Part shown: piece by piece, positions 2-57,720 of the stretch | Layout: the number at the start of each line of letters is the position of its first letter | Position numbering within the stretch: the stretch's first letter is position 1 | IMG/VR virus record: IMGVR_UViG_3300020048_000003 | Source of the DNA: a virus | Length of the DNA stretch: 59,049 nt | Strand: one strand, 5' to 3' | Notes under the pieces: generated by a model | What the model was told of the DNA's origin: nothing | Database searches by the model: none | What the model saw: the letters and a program-made list of their open reading frames with translations, nothing else | Program-made: the position numbers and the translations under genes

Positions 2-82
2 GAATTTGCAAATAATTTTGAACTATCACCTGAAAATAATATTTTACAAAGAAAAGATAAATTAAAAAAATTAAATGGATAG
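2..82 (+). CDS. 3' end of small protein with lysine-rich C-terminal tail (...NNILQRKDKLKKLNG); 5' partial at window edge
   Basis: Open frame from window start to TAG at 80-82; C-terminal R-K-D-K-L-K-K-L tail matches the tail family of downstream + strand genes; overlaps next ATG at 75. Confidence 0.4.
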   Translation, partial: EFANNFELSPENNILQRKDKLKKLNG

Positions 83-320
83 TATTGGACATAGAATAAT
101 AGAGAAAGTCGTAACTTTAGCTGAACAATATTCCTTAGAAGATAAAGTTATAATTTATGAATTGTTAAGACCATATTTTTTAAAACCTGATGATATGGAT
201 TTAAGAACCATATGTAAATTAGAAGCTTTTCTAAATACTGAACTTTTAATTATTCCAACCAAACAACAATGGAGAAAAATTAAATTAGAAAAATTAAACA
301 ATATTATAGATGGAAGTTAA
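75..320 (+). CDS. hypothetical small protein (81 aa), C-terminal WRKIKLEKL tail
   Basis: ORF track; ATG start; C-terminal tail-family motif; 11-nt overlap with next gene. Confidence 0.55.
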   Translation: MDSIGHRIIEKVVTLAEQYSLEDKVIIYELLRPYFLKPDDMDLRTICKLEAFLNTELLIIPTKQQWRKIKLEKLNNIIDGS

Positions 321-579
321 GAAGGATGATATTTTTGTTTGTAAGAAAAATTATGGTGTTTTTCATGCAAATAAATTTTATAAAATAAAAAATGTATATA
401 AAGATGCATTAGAAATTGATAATACAACATTTTATTTTGAGAAAGAGAAATATGATAAATGGTTATGTTTTATATGTCCAGCGAAAAAAACATGTTATAC
501 AAAACCTGTTTTTAAAGATTTCTTTTTTACCATAAAAGAAATAAGAAAAGAAAAATTAAAAAAGATAAAAAAGGTATGA
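310..579 (+). CDS. hypothetical small protein (89 aa), C-terminal IRKEKLKKIKKV tail
   Basis: ORF track; conserved lysine-rich C-terminal tail. Confidence 0.55.
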   Translation: MEVKKDDIFVCKKNYGVFHANKFYKIKNVYKDALEIDNTTFYFEKEKYDKWLCFICPAKKTCYTKPVFKDFFFTIKEIRKEKLKKIKKV

Positions 580-604
580 AAAATAAACTTAATAAACTTA
601 ATAT

Positions 605-805
605 ATGAAAATAAAACTTTTTAAGGCAAATCCATATTACCTTACTGCGGCAGAAGATACGATTAATGAATGGCTTTCAAAAAATAATGTATCTATCAGC
701 AGCACTAATATGGCTGAAGATGAAAATGGTATAGTAATTTCTATTTTTTATAGAACATTACCAGAAGAAAGAAAAGAGAAACTTGATAATATAAATAACG
801 TATGA
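605..805 (+). CDS. hypothetical small protein (66 aa), C-terminal ERKEKLDNINNV tail
   Basis: ORF track; tail motif; stop overlaps next ATG (ATGA). Confidence 0.5.
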   Translation: MKIKLFKANPYYLTAAEDTINEWLSKNNVSISSTNMAEDENGIVISIFYRTLPEERKEKLDNINNV

Positions 806-1116
806 AATTATACCAAGTAGGCGATACTGTCATAATAAAATCAGAAAAATGGTATTATTTGAATTGTGATCAAGTTGGATATGTTAGATATAAAGAAGTG
901 ACATCTAATTTTAATGATAAAATGTCGGCATTTTGTGGTATGAAAGCTATAATAACTTCAATTGATAACGACGCTTGGTCAAAGAATAAATATTGTTATA
1001 AAATTGATATAGATAAAGGAATGTGGCATTGGAATAATTTTATGTTTGAAGATATTAAAAAAATAAGAAGAAAAAAACTAAAAAAAATCAATGAAAAAAA
1101 GAATATGTTGTTGTAA
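802..1116 (+). CDS. hypothetical small protein (104 aa), C-terminal IRRKKLKKINEKK tail
   Basis: ORF track; tail motif; overlaps following gene. Confidence 0.55.
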   Translation: MKLYQVGDTVIIKSEKWYYLNCDQVGYVRYKEVTSNFNDKMSAFCGMKAIITSIDNDAWSKNKYCYKIDIDKGMWHWNNFMFEDIKKIRRKKLKKINEKKNMLL

Positions 1117-1378
1117 AAAATCTTATCTTTTACATGAAGAAGAATCAGAAGAAATTTTTTCATCTGGTAAATATTATAAATTCTATTCAGAAGATGATAG
1201 TCTTTTCTTCTGGGTCATTTATAATAAACATGGAGAATCTGGACACCAAGGTTGTAGATTTCACAATAACAAAAAAGATTATACAAAAAAAGGAAATGTT
1301 AATGCTTTTTATGAATTTTTTGATGAGGGAAGATTAATGAAATTAAAAAAATTAAAATCAATAGAAAATGGAAGATAA
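1091..1378 (+). CDS. hypothetical Cys/His-containing small protein (95 aa), C-terminal LMKLKKLKSIENGR tail
   Basis: ORF track; preferred over alternative frame 1134..1337 because it ends with the family tail and abuts the next start. Confidence 0.45.
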   Translation: MKKRICCCKKSYLLHEEESEEIFSSGKYYKFYSEDDSLFFWVIYNKHGESGHQGCRFHNNKKDYTKKGNVNAFYEFFDEGRLMKLKKLKSIENGR

Positions 1379-3774: not shown

Positions 3775-3806
3775 TAAAAAAAGCCTCAAATTGAGGCTTT
3801 TTTTAT
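3775..3806. terminator. bidirectional intrinsic terminator between convergent genes
   Basis: A-run, GCCTCAAATTGAGGC hairpin (3783-3797), then T7-run. Confidence 0.7.
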
Positions 3807-4135
3807 TTCAGAAAATTAAAATTGTCGTTTAATATTTTATCAATTAATTTTCTTGCTGCGGGATCTCCACTCTGAGCATTCCATTTAGGTAAAGGTAGAT
3901 TTTTTCTTTTACAATATTTTAATAACCAATTAGCGCAATCAATTCCATCTTCATCTGATTGTAAATCAAAATCAAAACATATAGCATCTGGAAGTCCATG
4001 CTCCATAATATATGCTTTGAATTGTTGAGGAGTTTTTGCCCATATGGTATCAAATGGTTTAGGTATTGGACTAAATACCAACCAATCATCCTTTAAAGGA
4101 TTTCTATAATCGTCTAACCAAAGTAGTGTTTTCAT
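3803..4135 (-). CDS. hypothetical protein (110 aa)
   Basis: ORF track; stop immediately followed by terminator. Confidence 0.65.
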   Translation of the reverse strand: MKTLLWLDDYRNPLKDDWLVFSPIPKPFDTIWAKTPQQFKAYIMEHGLPDAICFDFDLQSDEDGIDCANWLLKYCKRKNLPLPKWNAQSGDPAARKLIDKILNDNFNFLK

Positions 4136-4676: not shown

Positions 4677-4864
4677 GCTATTGTACCATATTCAATTTTA
4701 CCTAATTCATCGTATAGTTCTTGTAGTCTATTTTCTTCCCAGAGTTTAATTGGTTTACAATTAAAAATTTTAGAAAACGTGTTCATCCATTCGGCAAATT
4801 TATCAATTGTACCAAAGACATGAACACCTTTTTCTAAAACAATTCTTCTATTCATAAATTTCAT
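4673..4864 (-). CDS. hypothetical small protein (63 aa)
   Basis: ORF track; ATGA overlap with upstream gene. Confidence 0.5.
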   Translation of the reverse strand: MKFMNRRIVLEKGVHVFGTIDKFAEWMNTFSKIFNCKPIKLWEENRLQELYDELGKIEYGTIA

Positions 4865-5174
4865 TTTGAATTTTCTCTAACTTTTGTTTTCTTATTATTT
4901 TTATACCAACATCACCTTTAAATTCATAACCTTTTCCAAGATACTCATGCAAAATATCACCATAATCATCTTCTGGTGTTCTTATTGACCAACACCCATT
5001 TCCTGTACCATCAAAAGAAACATAGAGATAATTAAAATCATAATATATCAAATCTTTGTCTCTAAAATGATCACCACCGATTTCATTTAATGAAGTCCTA
5101 TAACTTCCATTAATTCTATGAATTCTCCAGACCCATTTTATCATCCTATTGCAGATTTTATTTGTCTTTCCCAC
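4848..5174 (-). CDS. hypothetical protein (108 aa) with C-terminal IIRKQKLEKIQ tail
   Basis: ORF track; tail-family motif at C-terminus. Confidence 0.55.
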   Translation of the reverse strand: MGKTNKICNRMIKWVWRIHRINGSYRTSLNEIGGDHFRDKDLIYYDFNYLYVSFDGTGNGCWSIRTPEDDYGDILHEYLGKGYEFKGDVGIKIIRKQKLEKIQNEIYE

Positions 5175-5383: not shown

Positions 5384-5564
5384 TTTCTTCTATGAGTTTA
5401 TTTGTGAGTTTAAAAAATTCAATGTGACCTTTGCAAGTGATTTTTTGTCTCTCTTTTAATATTGCAAAAGAATCATCATTTGTATTGATAACCGTGAAAC
5501 CTGCGTCTTTTAACTTTTTAGTGGCTTCATTAATCCTGATAGATAAAGGAATATATTCTGTCAT
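5370..5564 (-). CDS. hypothetical small protein (64 aa)
   Basis: ORF track; ATGA overlap with upstream gene. Confidence 0.5.
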   Translation of the reverse strand: MTEYIPLSIRINEATKKLKDAGFTVINTNDDSFAILKERQKITCKGHIEFFKLTNKLIEENGKV

Positions 5565-5875
5565 AGTTTATTTATTTTTTGTAATTTATCTTTTCTTAAT
5601 TTATTAAATTCTAACTTTTTTTGTTTTTCTATTTCTTTTTTTCTTTCATCTGCTTTATTTAAAAGTTTTGTTTTCATTTGTGAATAAGATATGTCACCAT
5701 TCATATATTCAGTAAATACTTTATCTAAAAAAGCATCTAATTCAGATTTAGGAGTAGGTGAAGAAATATTATTTTTTATTATAGAAATAATATTTAGTCC
5801 AGATATTATAGAATATAAGGCTCCTGCTAATGCAAAAATTGCGACGAATATTAATATACCTTGAAGAATTGCCAT
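5561..5875 (-). CDS. small membrane-anchored protein (104 aa) with C-terminal KLRKDKLQKINKL tail
   Basis: N-terminal TM segment MAILQGILIFVAIFALAGALYSII; tail-family motif. Confidence 0.6.
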   Translation of the reverse strand: MAILQGILIFVAIFALAGALYSIISGLNIISIIKNNISSPTPKSELDAFLDKVFTEYMNGDISYSQMKTKLLNKADERKKEIEKQKKLEFNKLRKDKLQKINKL

Positions 5876-5912
5876 TATTTTATTTTATTAAGTCTTCTTA
5901 GTTTTTGTTTTC

Positions 5913-6023
5913 TTATTTTAAGTTTTTCATTTTTTTATATTCTATTAGATATTTAATAGGTAATCCAAAAATTCCTATTAAAGCTAATATCATTAAAATT
6001 AAAATTATACTATCTATGGTCAT
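5913..6023 (-). CDS. hydrophobic 36-aa peptide (MTIDSIILILMILALIGIFGLPIKYLIEYKKMKNLK), below ORF-track size cut-off
   Basis: Manual translation of minus strand; single predicted TM helix; located in otherwise empty 200-nt gap. Confidence 0.3.
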   Translation of the reverse strand: MTIDSIILILMILALIGIFGLPIKYLIEYKKMKNLK

Positions 6024-6082
6024 TCTATATTGATTTAGATTTAGACCACAAAGATAGTATAAATTTTTTAGATAAAAAATTT

Positions 6083-6358: not shown

Positions 6359-6443
6359 AGCTTTTTAAATTTGATTGTTCATATTATATCCTGATACAAA
6401 GATATGAATAAAAAAGATATAAAAAAAATTACGAACAAAATTT

Positions 6444-6480
6444 AAAAAAAAAGATTTTGCTTTCACAAAATCTTAAATTC
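6444..6480. terminator. intrinsic terminator for minus-strand gene 6493..6747
   Basis: AAGATTTTG-CTTTCA-CAAAATCTT hairpin (6451-6474) followed on the minus strand by T9-run. Confidence 0.5.
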
Positions 6481-6492
6481 ATTTTAATGAGA

Positions 6493-12876: not shown

Positions 12877-12916
12877 AATATTTTATATATATAAAAAAAT
12901 AAATATTTATTTTTAG
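12877..12916. promoter_or_regulatory. 40-nt AT-rich divergent intergenic region (candidate promoters for 12876<- and ->12917)
   Basis: Only non-coding spacer between divergently oriented genes; TATATATAAAAAAATAAATATTTATTTTTAG. Confidence 0.3.
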
Positions 12917-13819
12917 ATGATAGATTTAGTATTAACAATGATAGCCGCGTATGATGATTATGAAACCGAACTTGGTTTTACAAAAGATGATATAAATAAT
13001 ATCATCAAAAAATATAAAGCACTTGATGATTTAAAAGAAAGTAATGAAATAGGATGGATCATTTTGTGGAAAAACAAGTATATTTCAAATGAAATATTTG
13101 CAAAATTAATGGATGTTGAATACGAAGATAAGGATTTTTGGATTGTGTGTGATAATTTTGATGATGTTTTATCTAAGGAATATGAAACAGAAATTGAAAT
13201 TTTAGATGGTAATTTAGATTGGGAACCAGGTGAAACTTATGATGTTGAATTATATTATCATTGGAACTCATTTACAGAAGAAACATTAAAAGACATAGTA
13301 AAATTTTGTATTGATAAAGGATTTGAAATTGATGATGAATTAATGACAGAAGAAAATACAATCTTTAAAGATGGTGATATATATTTTATTGGTTCTGATG
13401 ATGAAAAAAGAATCTATGATCTATTAAATGATGATGAATTGGAAGATTTAAAAAGTTCATTAAATATCGCAATATGTGAAGCACAAGAAAGTGCTGATCA
13501 GAGTGAAATGTATAGAGCTGTAAAAAAGGCTTTTATAAATTCAGTTGGCGAATATAAATATAAAACTATCAATGTAGATGGAAAAGACGAAGAGAAATTA
13601 TATATTAGAATGGATATAGATTGGGTTGATATTGAATCTAGATTAAAAGATGAATATGGTGATTTTGACTTTGATACAGAAAATTATGGAAGTCTTCTTT
13701 ATATATTAAAAGAATATGAATATTTTGATTTTAGAGTACCCGATTATGATCGTTTATCTGGTAGTATTGATGATGATATAATGAATGAATATATTCAAAA
13801 TCGTTTAGAGTGGGATTAA
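12917..13819 (+). CDS. acidic hypothetical protein (300 aa) on opposite strand, interrupting the array
   Basis: ORF track; D/E-rich; convergent 4-nt overlap with 13816..14685. Confidence 0.7.
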   Translation: MIDLVLTMIAAYDDYETELGFTKDDINNIIKKYKALDDLKESNEIGWIILWKNKYISNEIFAKLMDVEYEDKDFWIVCDNFDDVLSKEYETEIEILDGNLDWEPGETYDVELYYHWNSFTEETLKDIVKFCIDKGFEIDDELMTEENTIFKDGDIYFIGSDDEKRIYDLLNDDELEDLKSSLNIAICEAQESADQSEMYRAVKKAFINSVGEYKYKTINVDGKDEEKLYIRMDIDWVDIESRLKDEYGDFDFDTENYGSLLYILKEYEYFDFRVPDYDRLSGSIDDDIMNEYIQNRLEWD

Positions 13820-20583: not shown

Positions 20584-20858
20584 ATGTTATATTTTTCTGC
20601 TTCTTTTCTTAATTCCATATCTTTTATAAAATCTAAATGATTATTAACTAAATCTATTAATATTTGGTCTTTCTGTTTTTTAGCAAATCTTAAAACTTTT
20701 ATCAATCCAGTTCTACTAAATCCATGACCATGTCTTCCTGTTATTTTTTTTTCATTTGGATATTTCTCAATAAGATAACTTTTTATAGGTGCCTCACTTT
20801 TAATTAATTCAACAACATCAGCATATGTATATTCTTCAAATAATTTAATATATCTCAT
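20580..20858 (-). CDS. array cassette protein
   Basis: N MRYIKLFEEYT / C KEAEKYNI; followed by 44-nt gap. Confidence 0.8.
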   Translation of the reverse strand: MRYIKLFEEYTYADVVELIKSEAPIKSYLIEKYPNEKKITGRHGHGFSRTGLIKVLRFAKKQKDQILIDLVNNHLDFIKDMELRKEAEKYNI

Positions 20859-20902
20859 AGAGATTATATATAAAATAAATAAAATAAAAACTTGAAAAGG
20901 AA

Positions 20903-28954: not shown

Positions 28955-28983
28955 AAATTAATTTACTTTTGTAAATATCTCTT

Positions 28984-29355
28984 TCAGAGATTATATTTAT
29001 TTGCATCTAATATTGTTTCTAGATATTCTCTGTTTTTAGAAAAATGTAAAATTTCATCTCTATCAAATAATTGACGTGTTATAGTTGATTGTTTATATTG
29101 TTTAAAAAATTCTTTTTTATCAGGCGGAATATTATATTCTACTTTATAAGTTTTTGTTGCATTATATTGCCTACCCCTATATTCGACGGTGTTATCTTCT
29201 TCTACAACTATTATTTTACCTATTGTTGTTTGATAAAAATTATTTAATGTATCATTATTATAAACACCAATATAATAATCATTTTTTTGACAAATAACAT
29301 AATCACCTTCATTAGGTTCATTATGATGCTTTTCATATGTTTTTAAATATCTCAT
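28984..29355 (-). CDS. array cassette protein, EILHFSKNRE subfamily; tandem duplicate of next gene
   Basis: N MRYLKTYEKHHNEPNEGDYVIC / C YLETILDANKYNL; about 80% identical to 29352..29684. Confidence 0.8.
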   Translation of the reverse strand: MRYLKTYEKHHNEPNEGDYVICQKNDYYIGVYNNDTLNNFYQTTIGKIIVVEEDNTVEYRGRQYNATKTYKVEYNIPPDKKEFFKQYKQSTITRQLFDRDEILHFSKNREYLETILDANKYNL

Positions 29356-30118: not shown

Positions 30119-30450
30119 AAGTTATATTTATCTGTATCTTTTCTTATTTCAAATTCTTCTATTTCTTCTGGAGTCAATTTTCTAATTAAATTCTTTTTTG
30201 ATGCCATCCAAATTTTACCTTTTGTATCTTGAATTCTATATGGATCTACTTGATTTGATGTTCCACCAGGAAAATATCTTATTTTATTCTTTAATGTTTC
30301 TTTTTTAATTTCAACAATTTTTACAAATTCTTCTTTATCTAAAAAAAGCCTATTTAACCAATCAAAATGCGTCCTTTGTGGTTTATATAATACATAATCA
30401 CCAACTTTATATTTAGTGAATATTCCTTCATATGTTTGTATATATCTCAT
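30115..30450 (-). CDS. array cassette protein, mini-domain type
   Basis: N MRYIQTYEGI...KVGDYVLY / C TPEEIEEFEIRKDTDKYNL. Confidence 0.8.
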   Translation of the reverse strand: MRYIQTYEGIFTKYKVGDYVLYKPQRTHFDWLNRLFLDKEEFVKIVEIKKETLKNKIRYFPGGTSNQVDPYRIQDTKGKIWMASKKNLIRKLTPEEIEEFEIRKDTDKYNL

Positions 30451-30746
30451 AAGTTATAATTATTTACATTATCAAAATAGTTATAAATTTCAATTTCTTC
30501 TGATGTCGCTTCACGTATATTTTTCCAACTTTGTGCATATATAAGAGAATCCTTTAGACCATTATGATTAAATTCATGATATTCTTTATCTATATAATAA
30601 CCAAAAAATTTAAAATAAGATTGTTTTTTATACGAAAAGTCTTTTTTTATCTTTCCAACTAAAGTACCGTATTGATTAACGTAAATAGCATTAGGATCAA
30701 AAGTTTTATTATTTATACCTTCAAATATTTTGAAATTTATTATCAT
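30447..30746 (-). CDS. array cassette protein (MIINFKIFE N-variant)
   Basis: N MIINFKIFEGIN / C NVNNYNL; paralogue of 35125..35508 C-half. Confidence 0.8.
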   Translation of the reverse strand: MIINFKIFEGINNKTFDPNAIYVNQYGTLVGKIKKDFSYKKQSYFKFFGYYIDKEYHEFNHNGLKDSLIYAQSWKNIREATSEEIEIYNYFDNVNNYNL

Positions 30747-30758
30747 ATTCTATATATT

Positions 30759-30792
30759 AAAAAAACCTTTGAAATTTTTCAAAGGCTGTTTC
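30759..30792 (-). terminator. intrinsic terminator inside array (CCTTTGAAATTTTTCAAAGG hairpin + T7)
   Basis: Perfect 8-bp stem 30766-30785 includes stop codon of 30779..31066; minus strand follows with TTTTTTT. Confidence 0.6.
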
Positions 30793-31066
30793 TACGTATT
30801 GTTAATAAATCTTTTATTTCTTCTGGTGGTATTTTTATTATTTCATCTGGAATTACCCATAATTCTTTAGTCATTGGACGATAAGAATAATCTATTTCAA
30901 AATTATCTGTTAATTTAACTATTTCATAATTTTCTTTATTTTTCTTACCTGGCTCAATATCAGCAATTTGATAAATCGCTGTGCTATTATGTTTTTTAAC
31001 ATAATCTCCTATTCTAAATTTAAAATCTCTAAATTTATTTTCTTCGTAATTACCAATATATTTCAT
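30779..31066 (-). CDS. array cassette protein with altered C-terminus (TIRRNSL), mini-domain type
   Basis: N MKYIGNYEEN...RIGDYVKK; no KYNL; terminator replaces junction. Confidence 0.7.
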   Translation of the reverse strand: MKYIGNYEENKFRDFKFRIGDYVKKHNSTAIYQIADIEPGKKNKENYEIVKLTDNFEIDYSYRPMTKELWVIPDEIIKIPPEEIKDLLTIRRNSL

Positions 31067-31485: not shown

Positions 31486-31868
31486 AAGTTATATTTATTT
31501 GCATCTTTTTTTAATAGATAACTTTGGTATTGTTTTGGATATAATTTAATATACATTTCTACCATTCTTTGTCCTAATTCTGTTTTAGGTCTCAAATAAT
31601 CAAAAAAATCTAATCCATCATCATCCTTTATTGACCAATCCGCATCATGTTCAATTAAATATTTTATAATACTATGATGTTCATAGTATGCTGCTATAAT
31701 AAGTGCCGTACTTCCATCTTCTGGATTTTGATAATCTATATCTGCACCATTTTCTAATGCAATACGAAGATCACTAATATCATCTGTTTGAGCAGCATCA
31801 AAAAGATTGATATTATAATATTCCTTTTCTTCATCACTTATATCTTCAAATAATTTGATATATTTCAT
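31482..31868 (-). CDS. array cassette protein, ankyrin-repeat
   Basis: N MKYIKLFEDIS / C DANKYNL; DGSTALIIAAYYEHHSIIKYLIEHDADWSIKD. Confidence 0.8.
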   Translation of the reverse strand: MKYIKLFEDISDEEKEYYNINLFDAAQTDDISDLRIALENGADIDYQNPEDGSTALIIAAYYEHHSIIKYLIEHDADWSIKDDDGLDFFDYLRPKTELGQRMVEMYIKLYPKQYQSYLLKKDANKYNL

Positions 31869-32221
31869 AAGTTATATTTATTTGCATTTATTTTTAATTC
31901 TACTTCTTCTATTGTTTTAGCAAAAGCCAATATTTGTGTAAACCTACAAGATTTAGTTCCATTATTAAATAGGCTTTCAAGTTCTTTTGGAATATTAAAA
32001 TATTGCAATTTTACACCTTCACATTTATCATAAGCATCAAATATATATCCTATAACTCTACCACAATTTTTACTCAAAAAATGTAAATACTCTTCACCTA
32101 CTGGTGTATAACTGCGATTATTTCTTTGTTGTTTATTTAGAGGAATAACTTGAACATAATCACCTATATTGGGTATTTTATTTAAAGCCTTAATATCAAA
32201 ATTTTCAAAAATAGTTATCAT
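31865..32221 (-). CDS. array cassette protein
   Basis: N MITIFENFDI / C INANKYNL. Confidence 0.8.
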   Translation of the reverse strand: MITIFENFDIKALNKIPNIGDYVQVIPLNKQQRNNRSYTPVGEEYLHFLSKNCGRVIGYIFDAYDKCEGVKLQYFNIPKELESLFNNGTKSCRFTQILAFAKTIEEVELKINANKYNL

Positions 32222-32927: not shown

Positions 32928-32965
32928 CCATTATATATAAATTTTTAAAACTTTTTTATTTTTTT

Positions 32966-32984: not shown

Positions 32985-33020
32985 TTTACGGTTTCTATAA
33001 AAAATTCGTCCATTATAAGT

Positions 33021-33133
33021 TTGTTAGGTTAACAAACTTCCTTTATGAGGTTGTCAGGTGAACAACTTTCCTTTATAAGATTGTCAGGTAACAATTTTCG
33101 TTAGTGTTGTGTTAGTTAACAACTCCGTTTTAA
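33021..33133. repeat. four imperfect 30-bp direct repeats (TTGTyAGGTnAACAAnTTTCC core), iteron-like
   Basis: R1 33021-33050 TTGTTAGGTTAACAAACTTCCTTTATGAGG; R2 33051-33080 TTGTCAGGTGAACAACTTTCCTTTATAAGA; R3 33081-33107; R4 33108-33133; locally higher GC than surroundings. Confidence 0.7.
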
Positions 33134-33160
33134 CTCCGTAAAAGGTAAGTTTTCCGTTAA

Positions 33161-33192
33161 AAACAAAAAGCCACAGAAATGTGGCTTTTTAA
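33161..33192. terminator. intrinsic terminator (GCCACAGAAATGTGGC + T5) after gene 33209..33601
   Basis: 6-bp GC-rich stem 33170-33185 flanked by A-run and T-run; works on both strands. Confidence 0.7.
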
Positions 33193-33208: not shown

Positions 33209-33601
33209 TTATAAATTGTATTTTGAAGCATCTATTTCATGTTGCTCAACATTAACTAAACCAACAAACATATAACCTCTTTCTTTTAATATTTTTTCAA
33301 ATGAATATGGATGGGGTGTAAAATATGGTCCTTTTATTACTTTATCTCTTAAACTATCATATGTAAATTCAAGACCAACTAAAACAAAATTATCTTTGAA
33401 TTCTTTATCTTCTCTTATATTTTTAGCAAGACCTAATGCTTGATCAATAGGTTCTACTGGATTCTGCCATTCAGTATATTGTTTATATAATCTCACCAAT
33501 CCATCTTCCAATTTATTATTTGTTGGTAATATCCAATATACTTTTCTTGATACAATATCATCTGTATCTCTAAATGCTTCTGTTGTTTTTATGTGTTTCA
33601 T
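33209..33601 (-). CDS. array cassette protein
   Basis: N MKHIKTTEAF / C EIDASKYNL; followed by terminator. Confidence 0.8.
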   Translation of the reverse strand: MKHIKTTEAFRDTDDIVSRKVYWILPTNNKLEDGLVRLYKQYTEWQNPVEPIDQALGLAKNIREDKEFKDNFVLVGLEFTYDSLRDKVIKGPYFTPHPYSFEKILKERGYMFVGLVNVEQHEIDASKYNL

Positions 33602-38323: not shown

Positions 38324-38340
38324 ATTTCTATATATTTAAT

Positions 38341-41531: not shown

Positions 41532-41869
41532 AAATTATATTTCTTTGCATTTTTTGCTATTTCATAATTCTCAATATCTTCATCACTTAACTCATCAATC
41601 TTTCCCATAAATTCAAAATTTTGTTTTCTATAAGAATTGGATAAAATAGTATTAAATCCCCAATCATTCTCACTTCTTTTTCCAACTTGAATAAAATCAT
41701 CTTGTGGCACATGAAAATCAAATTTTCTTTTTAATCTCAGATAATATTTAATTATATCTTCAGATGCTCCTATTTTATGTAATCGCAGTTCAAAAAGATC
41801 ATCATCTTTTCTTACTAACCAATATTTTGGTCCACTTGTTTCTTCAAACAATTTAAAATTAATAATCAT
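41528..41869 (-). CDS. array cassette protein
   Basis: N MIINFKLFEETS / C KNAKKYNL; preceded by 59-nt AT-rich gap (41870-41928). Confidence 0.8.
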   Translation of the reverse strand: MIINFKLFEETSGPKYWLVRKDDDLFELRLHKIGASEDIIKYYLRLKRKFDFHVPQDDFIQVGKRSENDWGFNTILSNSYRKQNFEFMGKIDELSDEDIENYEIAKNAKKYNL

Positions 41870-41928
41870 ATCTATTATATATTAAATTAAAAAATTAATA
41901 TTATAGATATGACTAATTAATAAAGAAA

Positions 41929-42680: not shown

Positions 42681-42988
42681 AAATTGTATTTTTTTGCATC
42701 TAATATTGCTTCTAAATCTTCTCTATTTTTAGAGTAATGCAATATTTCATCAGTAGCAAATTCTCTACGATGTGGAAATTGTTTTGTTCCATTTTTATCA
42801 GGTGTATTCTCATATTCAACTCTATATAATCTTTTTGTCGGTGAGATTCTTATTGCAGATACTATTTTACCTATCGTTGTTTGGTAAAAATTATCCAAAA
42901 TACTATTAACAATATTTAATTTACAAATAACATAATCTCCTATATTAGGTTCATCATAAAGTTCTTCATATATTTTTAAGTGTTTCAT
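42677..42988 (-). CDS. array cassette protein, EILHYSKNRE subfamily
   Basis: N MKHLKIYEELYDEPNIGDYVIC / C LEAILDAKKYNL; related to 28984-29684 pair. Confidence 0.8.
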   Translation of the reverse strand: MKHLKIYEELYDEPNIGDYVICKLNIVNSILDNFYQTTIGKIVSAIRISPTKRLYRVEYENTPDKNGTKQFPHRREFATDEILHYSKNREDLEAILDAKKYNL

Positions 42989-43254
42989 AAATTATATTTA
43001 TTTACATTTCTTAATAAAGATATTTCATCTTCTGATAATTGTCTTTTAGTGTTTTCTACAATATATATATCAGAATAATAGTTATTTTCTTTAATATGTC
43101 CTTCAATTGAAACAATTGAAGGAATTAAATTTTCAAAATTTTCAGATGATGTAAATAAATCTATTTTATTATAACCACTTCTACGAATATAAATTTCATA
43201 TTCTCGTTTATTCAAACGTGGCTCTACTGATTCGTTAAATTTATATATTTTCAT
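42985..43254 (-). CDS. array cassette protein
   Basis: N MKIYKFNESV / C RNVNKYNL. Confidence 0.8.
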   Translation of the reverse strand: MKIYKFNESVEPRLNKREYEIYIRRSGYNKIDLFTSSENFENLIPSIVSIEGHIKENNYYSDIYIVENTKRQLSEDEISLLRNVNKYNL

Positions 43255-43271
43255 AAATTATTCGTTTTTAC

Positions 43272-43296
43272 GAAAATCTTTGATTCTCAAAGATTA
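43272..43296 (-). terminator. hairpin ATCTTTGA-TTC-TCAAAGAT plus T-run; terminator-like element replacing junction
   Basis: 7-bp stem 43276-43294 containing stop of 43287..44126; adjacent TTCGT-TTTT-ACGAA mini-hairpin. Confidence 0.4.
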
Positions 43297-44126
43297 TATT
43301 TTTTCATATCTTGTTCAAGTTCCCATTTTTTATACCATTCACTATAAAGGTCCTCACTCAATGCTCTTGATAATTTTTGTAATTGTTCTATAACTTGATA
43401 TTTTTCAATACCTACTTTTCTTAAATTATAAATGAAATCGTTTCTATCTCTAATAAATTCAGGTCTTTTTATACTATCTTGTTTTGATATATTACTCATA
43501 GGATCTGGTGGTGAAAAATATATTGCATAACTTATTTTACCAGTCTCAAGATTAAAATGTTGAGATATATCAATCATTTTCTTAAACCTTGGTTTGTCAT
43601 CATAATCATAATATGCATATTCTTTACGATTAAAACTTAATGTATCTATTGTAAAATCCCATCTTAATAGTGATCTCAATACAAGTGGTTTTTTTAGCAT
43701 TTCTGCAAATGCATTTTTATATGTTTTTCTGGCTTTATAACTATTTAAAAATTCTCTAATATTCTTATTTTTATTAATAAACATTAAAAAATCATCTAAT
43801 GCTGTATTCATTAATATATTATTTACTCTTTTAATTTCTGGTTCTGATTCTTTTAATATTTCTTGTTCTCTTTTTTCTTTCTCTTCTTTTGTATTTTCTT
43901 TTTTACGTCTTAACGCATCTTCTTTTTCTTTCTTTCTTTGTTCTTTCCAGTAATTAGGATCATATTCTTTATATCTATCTTTTGCAACTTCAAGACCTTT
44001 ATTGCCAACTAAGGTCACAAAATGACCATATTCATCAGGATTTTCCTCTTTAACTTTTCTTAAAAAAGTTTCAGTTTCCTTATCTTTCATTAAATCAAAC
44101 ACTTTAAATTCAAATAGTCTTTTCAT
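43287..44126 (-). CDS. array cassette protein, K/E-rich (279 aa)
   Basis: N MKRLFEFKVFDL / C QDMKKYNL; long charged KEKEDALRRKKENTKEEKEKREQE segment. Confidence 0.75.
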   Translation of the reverse strand: MKRLFEFKVFDLMKDKETETFLRKVKEENPDEYGHFVTLVGNKGLEVAKDRYKEYDPNYWKEQRKKEKEDALRRKKENTKEEKEKREQEILKESEPEIKRVNNILMNTALDDFLMFINKNKNIREFLNSYKARKTYKNAFAEMLKKPLVLRSLLRWDFTIDTLSFNRKEYAYYDYDDKPRFKKMIDISQHFNLETGKISYAIYFSPPDPMSNISKQDSIKRPEFIRDRNDFIYNLRKVGIEKYQVIEQLQKLSRALSEDLYSEWYKKWELEQDMKKYNL

Positions 44127-47276: not shown

Positions 47277-47653
47277 AAATTATATTTTGTTATTTCTTCA
47301 TAATCTTTTCCAATTTTAACTGCTTCAGCAGCAGGTATATCCACAATAAATCTTAACATATCTTCTTTACTTTTAAAATGCGTTCCTATTTCAGTATCAA
47401 GACATTCTAATTTTAATTTTTCAAATGTGTCAAACACATTTTGTGTTTGTTCATCATCAATATCTAAATCATAATAAAATTCATATCTGATAATTGGTGT
47501 ATCTTCATTTGTAAATTCCCAATCAAAATAGTCTTTTTGTGGTAATTGTGATTCAATATAATATCCACAATTCTCAATTATTTTTTCATAATATTCCCAC
47601 TTAGATTGGAATTTATCTAAATCTTGATTATAATCTTCAAATGTTTTTATCAT
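47273..47653 (-). CDS. array cassette protein
   Basis: N MIKTFEDYNQ / C EITKYNL. Confidence 0.8.
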   Translation of the reverse strand: MIKTFEDYNQDLDKFQSKWEYYEKIIENCGYYIESQLPQKDYFDWEFTNEDTPIIRYEFYYDLDIDDEQTQNVFDTFEKLKLECLDTEIGTHFKSKEDMLRFIVDIPAAEAVKIGKDYEEITKYNL

Positions 47654-47997
47654 ATATTATATTTATTTGCAATTTTATGTAATTCCCTTTTTTCATGAAA
47701 ATCTGGAAACAATTTTGTGAATAATTTCTTACCTTTTTTATCCGCATAATAGTACGCATCATGCCCATATTTATTTATTAGATATGGATCTGCACCATTT
47801 GTTAGTAAAAATTTTATCCCTGTATATCTACATTCTAAGCAAGCAGTTATCAATAATGTATAATCCGCATCAAAAAAAGAATTTATATTAATTTTATCAA
47901 GTTGCTGTATCATACGTTGAATATCATCATGTCGCATGTGATAAAGAAAAGTTTCTTCTTCACTCCAATTATTTTCGTATAATTTGATATATTTCAT
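47650..47997 (-). CDS. array cassette protein, ankyrin-like
   Basis: N MKYIKLYENNW / C IANKYNI; TLLITACLECRYTGIKFLLTNGADPYLINKYGHDAYYYA. Confidence 0.8.
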   Translation of the reverse strand: MKYIKLYENNWSEEETFLYHMRHDDIQRMIQQLDKININSFFDADYTLLITACLECRYTGIKFLLTNGADPYLINKYGHDAYYYADKKGKKLFTKLFPDFHEKRELHKIANKYNI

Positions 47998-48007
47998 CTA
48001 TCTATAT

Positions 48008-48040
48008 ATAAAAAAACCTTTGAATTTTTTTCAAAGGTTA
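48008..48040 (-). terminator. intrinsic terminator inside array (CCTTTGAATTTTTTTCAAAGG hairpin + T7); near-identical twin of 30766-30785
   Basis: 8-bp stem 48017-48037 overlapping stop of 48031..48387; T-run on minus strand. Confidence 0.6.
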
Positions 48041-48387
48041 TATTTATTTGCAGTTAATTCATACTCTTCTATATTCACCATCCCGGCAAATTTATATCCT
48101 TCTTCTTCATAATAAGAATCATATAATTTTCCATAATATGGATTCCACCCCCATTTACTTGAAGAATGTTTTACCCTAGATTTTCCATTATATCCGATAA
48201 ACATATATTTATTATCAAAATTTGGATCATCACTTTTTCTAGTATATTGGTGCACACTTTTTAATAGACCTTCACTATAACTTTTTGCACATTTTATCTT
48301 CTTTAAAGAATCCTCAAATCTATCATCAGTTGGTATTAGCCAATAAAGTTTTTCATTTCTATTTTCGTATAATTTAATATATTTCAT
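48031..48387 (-). CDS. array cassette protein
   Basis: N MKYIKLYENRN / C LTANKYNL (stop embedded in terminator stem). Confidence 0.8.
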   Translation of the reverse strand: MKYIKLYENRNEKLYWLIPTDDRFEDSLKKIKCAKSYSEGLLKSVHQYTRKSDDPNFDNKYMFIGYNGKSRVKHSSSKWGWNPYYGKLYDSYYEEEGYKFAGMVNIEEYELTANKYNL

Positions 48388-57114: not shown

Positions 57115-57167
57115 TAAACAAACATCTATTTTATCTATATATTAAATATAAAAATTAATTTATAAAA
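57115..57167. promoter_or_regulatory. 53-nt AT-rich divergent intergenic region (candidate promoters for array block <-57114 and ->57168)
   Basis: Only spacer between divergent genes; no coding capacity. Confidence 0.3.
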
Positions 57168-57542
57168 ATGTCATATGAAAAAATATTTAATCCATCACAA
57201 CAAGATATTCAAGATATATCAAAAATATTCTCCATAGAACATATTGGAAATTCCAGAATAGATGGTTATCCTATGTTTAAAACAAAATATACCAATTATA
57301 CCGATTTAGATGAACTTAAAGAATTTTTTTCACTACAACTTATTCCTCTATTAGAAGATCATATAGCAGGATTTATGGCTACAGGATCCACAATAAATAT
57401 GATGCCTGGATTTCCTGCAGGTCAAAAAGATTTTATATTGTTAAAAATTAGCGGATTAAAAAAAGATTACAAACAATTTGTTCGTAGTGAAAAACTTAAA
57501 AAAATAGAAATACATTTTCAAGATGAAATATCAGGTAGTTGA
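57168..57542 (+). CDS. hypothetical protein (124 aa), + strand island
   Basis: ORF track; ATG start preceded by AT-rich spacer. Confidence 0.65.
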   Translation: MSYEKIFNPSQQDIQDISKIFSIEHIGNSRIDGYPMFKTKYTNYTDLDELKEFFSLQLIPLLEDHIAGFMATGSTINMMPGFPAGQKDFILLKISGLKKDYKQFVRSEKLKKIEIHFQDEISGS

Positions 57543-57720
57543 ACATATGTTTCCAGCATTAAAAAGTGTTATTGCTGTTAATTTAACTTTTAAAGAAGCA
57601 GAAGAATTATGCGAGAAATATTCTGATTGTGATGCTTATACTGATTTTGTTATTGAAGAAATGAAACAAACAATAAAAGAAAAAAGAAAAGAAAAATTAG
57701 AAAAAATTAGTTCTTTATAA
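57523..57720 (+). CDS. hypothetical small protein (65 aa) with C-terminal KEKRKEKLEKISSL tail
   Basis: ORF track; same lysine-rich C-tail motif as genes at 75-1378. Confidence 0.55.
   Translation: MKYQVVEHMFPALKSVIAVNLTFKEAEELCEKYSDCDAYTDFVIEEMKQTIKEKRKEKLEKISSL

Follow-up and report, generated by a model that had tools for sequence, protein, structure and literature searches.

Why should an array of small genes, whose members ordinarily overlap by four nucleotides, give up that overlap at a handful of junctions for a hairpin built on the upstream gene's stop codon? The question is raised by a 59,049-nucleotide stretch of viral DNA (IMG/VR record IMGVR_UViG_3300020048_000003; this whole stretch, at its full length, is what we call the window), which carries ~125 tandem small genes on its minus strand at 6083-58143 (~52 kb). 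An earlier note, made from the sequence alone, had drawn attention to two near-identical hairpins at 30766-30785 and 48017-48037 and to a weaker relative at 43276-43294, reading them either as a terminator reused at intervals to partition the array into several units or as a mobile or recombinogenic element. We recovered all three sequences at these positions (hairpins 1, 2 and 3, the first two being the twins) and interpret the twins, with a probability that we put at about 63%, as compact intrinsic (factor-independent) terminators or attenuators that, together with a restart motif, would split the minus-strand array into units.

To see how these junctions depart from the rest, we begin with the ordinary ones. 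Nearly all array proteins start with M(K/R)(Y/H)(I/L)K(L/T)(F/Y)E or a close variant (the MKYIKLFE type), and nearly all end in (A)xKYNL. The normal junction between two genes is a 4-nt ATGA overlap (77 of ~127 junctions), with most of the remainder having gaps of -1 to +3 nt, and its consensus extends over ~40 nt (..GATGCAAAaAAATATAAtTTATGAAAtATATAAAA..ATtTGAA). As RNA, this ordinary junction is unstructured, with a minimum free energy of 0 to -1.1 kcal/mol.

At the three hairpins, all of which act on the minus (coding) strand, the usual ATGA overlap is absent and the hairpin stands in its place. Hairpins 1 and 2 have the form CCTTTGAA-loop-TTCAAAGG, with perfectly paired stems of 8-10 bp and loops of 4-5 nt, and at all three sites the upstream gene's TGA (30779-81, 48031-33 and 43287-89) lies in the 5' arm, as had been noted for the twins, with the complement TCAAAG(G) following 3-5 nt after the stop. 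Read along the minus strand, junction 1 runs AGC CTT TGA AAAATTTCAAAGG TTTTTTT AATATATAGAAT ATG (gene 30779-31066 to gene 30447-30746), junction 2 runs AAC CTT TGA AAAAAATTCAAAGG TTTTTTT ATATATAGATAG ATG (gene 48031-48387 to gene 47650-47997) and junction 3 runs AAT CTT TGA GAATCAAAGAT TTTCGTAAAAACGAATAATTT ATG (gene 43287-44126 to gene 42985-43254), such that the spacer from stop to ATG is 32-33 nt at the twins. The earlier description of a T-run leading directly into the next start is right as to the T-run, which is T7 at both twins (and a shorter T4 at hairpin 3), and wrong as to the start, which lies 12 nt further on; at the twins a recurring motif, ATATATAG, lies within these 12 nt. The departures reported upstream of the hairpins, namely the C-terminus RRNSL and the codons AAC CTT in place of AAT TTA, are real. 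The ATGA overlap depends on TTA-TGA, so a junction that gives up the overlap leaves the Leu codon free, and CTT-TGA ends only three array genes, all three of which have TCAAAG just downstream.

Evaluating whether these palindromes exceed expectation, we found CTTTGA-N2-12-TCAAAG three times in the window against 0.08 expected, with none of 100 shuffles reaching three, and RNA folds of 58-61-nt segments gave -13.0, -11.6 and -10.7 kcal/mol (z of -4.2, -4.1 and -3.1) for hairpins 1, 2 and 3, respectively. A fourth small stop-codon hairpin, at 28961-28991, had been missed by the earlier note, and the four differ at two stem pairs, both of which stay paired: at position 3 of the Asn/Ser codon, two hairpins have C-G and two have U-A, and at position 3 of the Leu codon three have U-A and one has C-G (stem pairs were read by hand in codon register, as the MAFFT alignment shifts the 3' arm of hairpin 1 by one column). 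The non-coding arm thus tracks the coding arm. As judged from these stems, the selected feature is the pairing and not a particular sequence.

What, then, marks the twins as probable terminators? When we scanned the window for hairpins that directly abut T5 or more, are intergenic and lie on the coding strand, only five sites emerged (48016, 33163, 30765, 6452 and 3782), including a terminator at 33159-33190 that is stronger than the twins and that the earlier note had also passed over. The twins possess the stable stem-loop of an intrinsic terminator (stem of at least 5-8 bp, loop of 3-8 nt), a U-tract immediately 3' of the stem (T7, a feature lacking at hairpin 3, with its T4, and at the 28961-28991 hairpin), and a position at the 3' end of a co-oriented gene and outside the next gene. 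Their stems hold only 3 G-C pairs, and the core is predicted at -7.7 kcal/mol, as compared with -7.6 for the site at 3776-3804 and -14.2 for that at 33159-33190; by sequence, the twins have what defines an intrinsic terminator except a clearly G+C-rich stem. The proposal that such terminators partition the array into several units fits these observations (co-oriented, intergenic, abutting U7), while termination, its efficiency, the motif's promoter function and the RNA polymerase involved are things that we infer. Hairpin 3, with only U4, and the 28961-28991 hairpin would be weaker versions, possibly attenuators or RNA-stabilising hairpins.

The stem of the twins is also widespread in bacteria, where the pattern CCTTTGAA-N3-6-TTCAAAGGTTTTT occurs at 67 metagenome and at least 120 genome (GTDB) loci, many of them in Tenacibaculum, Chryseobacterium and Aquimarina, with stem-plus-T-run loci spanning genomes of Flavobacteriia, Clostridia and Bacilli. 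Among 211 stem instances, 105 have a co-oriented open reading frame (ORF) ending <=80 nt upstream, 7 fall inside an ORF, and 104 carry the A-run of a bidirectional terminator; the KYNL array was found at none of the at least 187 loci in metagenomes and GTDB genomes that match the relaxed hairpin pattern. We compared the twins with intrinsic (Rho-independent) terminators at large. Both consist of a short perfect stem-loop and then a U-tract, co-oriented with and abutting a gene end, and the identical stem CCTTTGAA/TTCAAAGG stands at gene ends in >180 unrelated loci. In the phage, however, the 5' arm is itself coding sequence (conserved C-terminal codons plus stop), A and U predominate in the stem, the U-tract also forms part of the downstream motif, and the whole stop-restart signal is contained in 32-33 nt; many of the bacterial copies are bidirectional (A-run upstream), whereas the phage twins are one-directional. 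The stem is a generic terminator word of AT-rich bacteria; the hairpins by themselves are routine, and the surrounding array is the unusual part. As a separate observation, several Tenacibaculum contig ends (L103, L108, L133, L140, L147, L156 and L215) carry a stem CCTTTGAAGCTAGCTTCAAAGG in a conserved ~70 nt (TTTATAAAATATTAATTAAA..TTTTTTGTTGTGTATAAAGTTAGGT), the recurrence of which at contig ends means that this stem adjoins a multi-copy element.

Turning to the restart motif, the sense-strand octamer ATATATAG occurs six times in the window, four of them in gaps 2-8 nt before an ATG (57142, 48009, 38335 and 30757), and a T-run with ATATATA(A/G/T) precedes an ATG without any hairpin in four gaps (those starting at 41870, 20859, 32928 and 12877 in Table 1). 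The motif is present at both divergent regions in which the array must restart after plus-strand genes (the gaps starting at 12877 and 57126). Because the T-run belongs to the motif even where there is no hairpin, the twins are best described as a hairpin set before a pre-existing T-rich, promoter-like element, and the 19-nt stretch TTTTTTTAATATATAGAAT is the candidate promoter part of what is in the twins a 45-nt module. Related loci yielded 92 motif sites, of which 43 sit in a gap with a co-oriented ORF starting <=80 nt downstream, and the distance varies from 3 to 69 nt, which suits a promoter better than a ribosome-binding signal.

In the mechanism that we propose, the codons that end the upstream gene (Asn/Ser-Leu-stop, AAC/AGC CUU UGA) would pair in the RNA with a 3' arm located in the 32-33-nt spacer, and the U7 tract would follow immediately after the stem. 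The U-run and the next 12 nt, (A)ATATATAGA, would together make up the T-run + ATATATA(A/G) motif that recurs in intergenic gaps of the phage family, a probable phage-specific promoter or initiation region that would restart expression of the next gene. The twins, the 33159-33190 terminator and the hairpin-less motif gaps would then cut the 52-kb array into several transcription units, namely one from 57114 to 48031; one from 47997 to 33209, inside which lie restarts at 41869 and 38323 as well as the weak hairpin 3; one from 32927 to 30779; and one from 30746 to the terminator at 6.4 kb, with restarts at 20858 and 12876. Hairpin and motif junctions would on this account serve as landmarks of an array expressed as several units and not as one 52-kb operon, and they nominate the T-run + ATATATA motif as a candidate phage-specific promoter.

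Table 1. Hairpins, U-tracts, terminators and motif-bearing junctions of the array and its surroundings (window coordinates; sequences read on the strand given).
Feature	Position	Strand	Sequence and remarks
Hairpin 1	30764-30787	minus	AGCCTTTGAA-AAAT-TTCAAAGGTT; core 8-bp stem 30766-30785
U7 tract after hairpin 1	30759-30765	minus	also the T-rich part of the downstream motif
Promoter-like/initiation motif, junction 1	30747-30758	minus	AATATATAGAAT; ends at ATG of gene 30447-30746
Hairpin 2	48015-48039	minus	AACCTTTGAA-AAAAA-TTCAAAGGTT
U7 tract directly 3' of hairpin 2	48010-48016	minus	
Motif, junction 2	47998-48009	minus	ATATATAGATAG; ends at ATG of gene 47650-47997
Hairpin 3, weaker	43276-43294	minus	ATCTTTGA-GAA-TCAAAGAT; 8-bp stem, 3-nt loop, then T4 only
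Second small hairpin, junction 3	43261-43274	minus	TTCGT-AAAA-ACGAA; between hairpin 3 and ATG of gene 42985-43254
Fourth junction of the same design	28961-28991	minus	ATCTCT-GAA-AGAGAT on AAT CTC TGA, then ATTTAC-AAAA-GTAAAT; without U-tract
Strongest internal array terminator	33159-33190	minus	AAAAAGCCACA-TTTC-TGTGGCTTTTTGTTTTT; -18.4 kcal/mol
Hairpin + T9, downstream end of array	6444-6474	minus	
Convergent-gene terminator	3776-3804		core -7.6 kcal/mol
Hairpin-less junction	38324-38340	minus	ATTAAATATATAGAAAT directly before ATG
Hairpin-less junction	41870-41894	minus	TTTTTTAATTTAATATATAATAGAT then ATG
Hairpin-less junction	20859-20884	minus	TTTTATTTATTTTATATATAATCTCT then ATG
Restart after 33159-33190 terminator	32928-32950	minus	TTTTAAAAATTTATATATAATGG then ATG
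40-nt divergent region	12877-12903	minus	TTTATTTTTTTATATATATAAAATATT then ATG; motif conserved at the homologous place in relative L217
Divergent region where array resumes	57126-57154	minus	TTTTTATATTTAATATATAGATAAAATAG

Related phage contigs repeat this layout with other sequences. In one (L025), the order is AACTTGATT-GTAA-AATCAAGTT TTAATTTTTAATATATAATATC ATG, built on a different stem, and in another (L020) a 12-bp stem is followed by T7 and AATTTATATATAA. Closer to the window, hairpins 2 and 3 are intact in a 99.7% variant (L219), which is uninformative, and a variant with 88.7% overall and ~93% local identity (L220) keeps hairpin 1 and its motif within a 52-nt identical run. The codons of L220 just before hairpin 1 show synonymous changes (CGT to CGC, AAC to AAT), so that RRNSL is a genuine conserved C-terminus; searches with the RRNSL gene (30779-31066) returned no deeper homologs beyond its own 90% cluster.

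Several observations weigh against the twins being terminators that are paired with a restart motif. Their stems are A+U-rich with a core of only -7.7 kcal/mol, and termination may be partial; the T-run is also found in hairpin-less motif gaps and is therefore not independent evidence of a terminator; and the array's convergent ends on plus-strand genes, at ~13816 and 57715, are unit ends without a hairpin. The motif fits neither a sigma-70 promoter nor the TAHHTTTG consensus of the Bacteroidota promoter box (PMC6847099), and its orientation in tandem gaps of related loci is only 13 sense versus 7 antisense, for which reason we hold its being a promoter at about even odds. The 52-nt run in L220 is weakly significant at ~7% local divergence, other runs there being 35-39 nt. 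Finally, homologs of gene 48031 in five relatives (L217/L218, where it is a tandem duplicate, L221-L223, L224 and L225) end in an ATGA overlap or a 14-nt gap and have no hairpin, which makes the element young and dispensable at that junction.

We next weigh what else the hairpins could be. The earlier note had suggested that the hairpin itself may be mobile or recombinogenic, and the fullest form of this idea is a cassette akin to the PeSLs of T4-like phages, in which the 45-nt module is copied between junctions and drives cassette shuffling. PeSLs combine a terminator stem-loop with a promoter and are repeated in a hyperplastic region of small ORFan genes (Arbiol et al. 2010, PMC2839356; Comeau et al. 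2014, PMC4122927), their promoters being sigma-70-like and the elements ~100 bp long, numerous and located at indel/recombination points (PMC2839356, PMC4122927). The twins would share this composite terminator-plus-promoter logic, as small intergenic cassettes amid small genes that would insulate neighbours transcriptionally, with the stem-loop standing beside the recurrent T-run + ATATATA(A/G) motif and its putative promoter function. They are moreover ~90% identical over ~45 nt, with flanks that do not align and flanking genes that are unrelated, and array order is heavily shuffled between relatives. Against this, the window holds only two full copies plus two partial ones in 59 kb, the exact module has 0 matches in IMG/VR, and, the stem itself aside, there are neither terminal repeats nor target-site duplications. 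The motif also stands without a hairpin (38324-38340 and 57126-57154), it is neither sigma-70-like nor a TAHHTTTG box, and among the sigma-70-type matches listed none is a sense-strand site at either module, the only match (30730-30758) being on the opposite strand and such matches not being enriched over shuffles. By sequence, then, the twins resemble PeSLs in logic and differ from them in lacking a sigma-70-like promoter, high copy number, conservation over ~100 bp and a place at the bounds of indels.

The shuffling itself points elsewhere than to the hairpins. Compared with L217, a relative with array proteins at 27-67% identity to those of the window, gene order is scrambled at nearly every junction, including ordinary hairpin-less, in-frame ATGA junctions, which are themselves conserved over ~40 nt; the ordinary 40-nt junction appears a more likely recombination substrate than the hairpin. 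A break of synteny at hairpin 2 was considered as evidence of recombination and rejected, as breaks occur at almost every junction. The likeness of the twins can be largely explained by convergence under constraint, with a mobile copy unnecessary, because the coding 5' arm (N/S-L-stop, AAC/AGC CTT TGA) forces its complement and the motif is shared, which accounts for every component of the similarity. With the hairpin-less homologs of gene 48031 lacking the module as well, the suggestion of a mobile or recombinogenic hairpin is not supported, and we regard the copied cassette as unlikely. Segmental duplication was likewise rejected as the origin of the twins, since their flanks do not align and the neighbouring genes are not paralogs. 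The exception is gene 48031-48387, a distant paralog of gene 33209-33601 (24% identity over 115 aa, E = 3e-8); each of these two genes lies immediately upstream of a terminator (hairpin 2 and the GCCACA hairpin, respectively), and relatives carry the family as tandem duplicates.

A bolder version of the stop-and-restart reading, which we consider doubtful, would combine these elements: the 45-nt module would be the lineage's minimal stop-and-restart cassette, spread by gene conversion from one in-frame junction to another and acting as a PeSL-like insulator, with a single U-run that doubles as terminator tail and as upstream element for a T-run + ATATATAG promoter firing 2-5 nt before the ATG. 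The mRNAs would then be leaderless or nearly so, whereas the transcripts of a Bacteroidota host mostly have leaders, and the module would mark off sub-arrays with timing of their own within a cassette array of >120 genes.

The array also calls integrons to mind, in which small, unrelated genes likewise stand in a long row in one orientation and cassettes have hairpin-forming sequence at the 3' end. Their attC sites are imperfect palindromes with extrahelical bases, lie after every cassette and are served by a tyrosine-recombinase integrase. Here, in contrast, the palindromes are perfect, they occupy 3-4 of ~125 junctions and a U-tract follows; the 30 window proteins scanned with Pfam and PHROG (both libraries counted) include no recombinase or integrase, the rest of the 286,618-bp genome lying outside that scan. 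The hairpins are not attC-like.

Unlikely to much the same degree as a copied cassette is a role of the hairpins on RNA without termination, either in protecting the 3' ends of processed mRNA or in breaking translational coupling. Hairpin 3 and the fourth hairpin are without a U-tract and still clearly selected, their 3' arms being complementary to coding sequence; the normal junction, unstructured and overlapping, favours coupling, whereas hairpin junctions are structured; and in the fold of segment 43248-43305 a second helix sequesters the next AUG. For the twins, however, a perfect hairpin abutting U7 is a canonical terminator, the same sequence stands at the gene ends of many bacteria, and a purely RNA-level role leaves unexplained why it is the two strongest hairpins that join a long T-run and a restart motif.

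That the palindromes are DNA operators of a dimeric regulator controlling the ATATATAG promoter just downstream seems very unlikely. The half-sites CCTTTGAA/TTCAAAGG are perfect inverted repeats centred ~25 nt upstream of the motif, and a gap elsewhere in the array (33009-33099) does hold three operator-like tandem inverted-repeat units; but half-site spacing varies (3, 4 or 5 nt), which is atypical for an operator and of no consequence to an RNA hairpin, the coding sequence dictates half of each site, the two stem positions that vary while staying paired indicate selection on pairing instead of a fixed sequence, and relatives place unrelated stems at the same position.

More improbable still is a role as promoters like those of phage N4, in which hairpins extruded from the DNA are recognised by a virion RNA polymerase. 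In favour are the low copy number (two or three), the short distance from each copy to the gene start downstream, and a probable host among the Bacteroidota, whose crAss-like phages have N4-like polymerases. N4 promoter hairpins have stems of 5-7 bp and loops of 3 nt, a design that the 8-10-bp stems and 4-5-nt loops of the twins do not fit; the U7 would go unexplained, the scanned window proteins include no RNA polymerase gene, and the same stem serves elsewhere as a plain terminator word. Functionless chance products of low-complexity sequence at 24% G+C are scarcely credible: a fixed-loop pattern with 3 mismatches allowed, which matches the window once (48017-48037), does match at least once in 43 of 100 shuffles, yet the excess of stop-codon palindromes, the fold z-scores near -4, the hairpin at every CTT-TGA gene end and the module identical in the 88.7% variant all speak against it.

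Returning to the array in which the terminator-like twins sit, we assessed how far its architecture extends. The window, at 24% G+C, comes from a metagenomic phage and its proteins belong to a 286,618-bp contig; the ordinary junction is also found in 25 IMG/VR viral contigs of up to 330 kb and 21-29% G+C. Against isolated phages in GenBank, no DNA match was obtained with 7.9 kb of the array (distant mode) or with 14 kb (near mode), nor a protein match with the ORF at 2225-2884, and literature on the KYNL array yielded nothing relevant. After trimming of the shared ends, a paralog is detectable for only 33 of 125 array genes, so the gene cores are mostly unrelated. Most gapped junctions, including hairpin junctions 43287 and 48031, retain both the KYNL end and a family-type start despite the broken overlap, and the conserved termini are thus not just a by-product of the junction signal. 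An AlphaFold model of gene 48031 has a confident core, with a mean predicted local distance difference test (pLDDT) score of 49 for residues 1-10 and 58 for the last 8, and gave no significant fold match in the PDB. With its unrelated cores, its shared termini and its shuffling between related metagenomic phages, the array itself is very unusual.

The array is interrupted by plus-strand genes at 12917-13819 and 57168-57720; in L217, the corresponding interruption encodes a homolog of the window's 300-aa protein with 43% identity to it. Within the array, 281 nt separate the 33159-33190 terminator from the TTTATATATAATGG-ATG restart, and this gap contains three tandem 30-nt repeats (33009-33099; TCCTTTATAAGATTGTCAGGTAACAAATT), each with an inverted repeat TTGTnA..TnACAA, which look like an operator or iteron array.

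Among flanking and non-array proteins, the only domains that Pfam and PHROG scans recovered were ankyrin repeats, a DnaJ-type zinc finger and a cREC_REC domain (a cyclic-phosphate processing receiver), and Rfam and tRNA scans found nothing. The ankyrin-repeat cassettes aside, the cREC_REC domain, in a 110-aa protein at 3803-4135 on the minus strand (Pfam E = 3e-16, PHROG 1479), is the one domain assigned with confidence. Another group of small proteins, encoded at 75-1378 (plus) and at 4848-5174 and 5561-5875 (minus), shares a basic C-terminal tail (R)K(E/K)KL(K/D)KI(N/K), with examples such as ..RKEKLKKIKKV, ..RKEKLDNINNV, ..RRKKLKKINEKK, ..RKQKLEKIQNEIYE and ..RKDKLQKINKL.

As for the host, non-array intergenic regions (2038-2224, 2885-2967, 5876-6082 and 6359-6492) carry Bacteroidota-type -7 boxes (TAATTTTG, TATATTTG and, twice, TATCTTTG), and no Shine-Dalgarno sequences are visible in the window. 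TA..TTTG is expected by chance ~1 per kb, so the box matches are only suggestive. Together, the TAHHTTTG boxes and the lack of Shine-Dalgarno sequences suggest a Bacteroidota (Flavobacteriia-like) host, and the boxes suggest host-polymerase promoters distinct from the array's T-run + ATATATA motif. Lastly, a 2.6-kb ENA contig (L002, 1-918) fuses the middle of gene 31865-32221 (window position 31967) to Flavobacteria-like DNA of 34% G+C, in which we read by eye the 3' end of a glutamyl-tRNA-synthetase-like gene, a terminator and a tRNA-like sequence on the reverse strand; the joint may be an assembly chimera or a hint to a co-occurring host.

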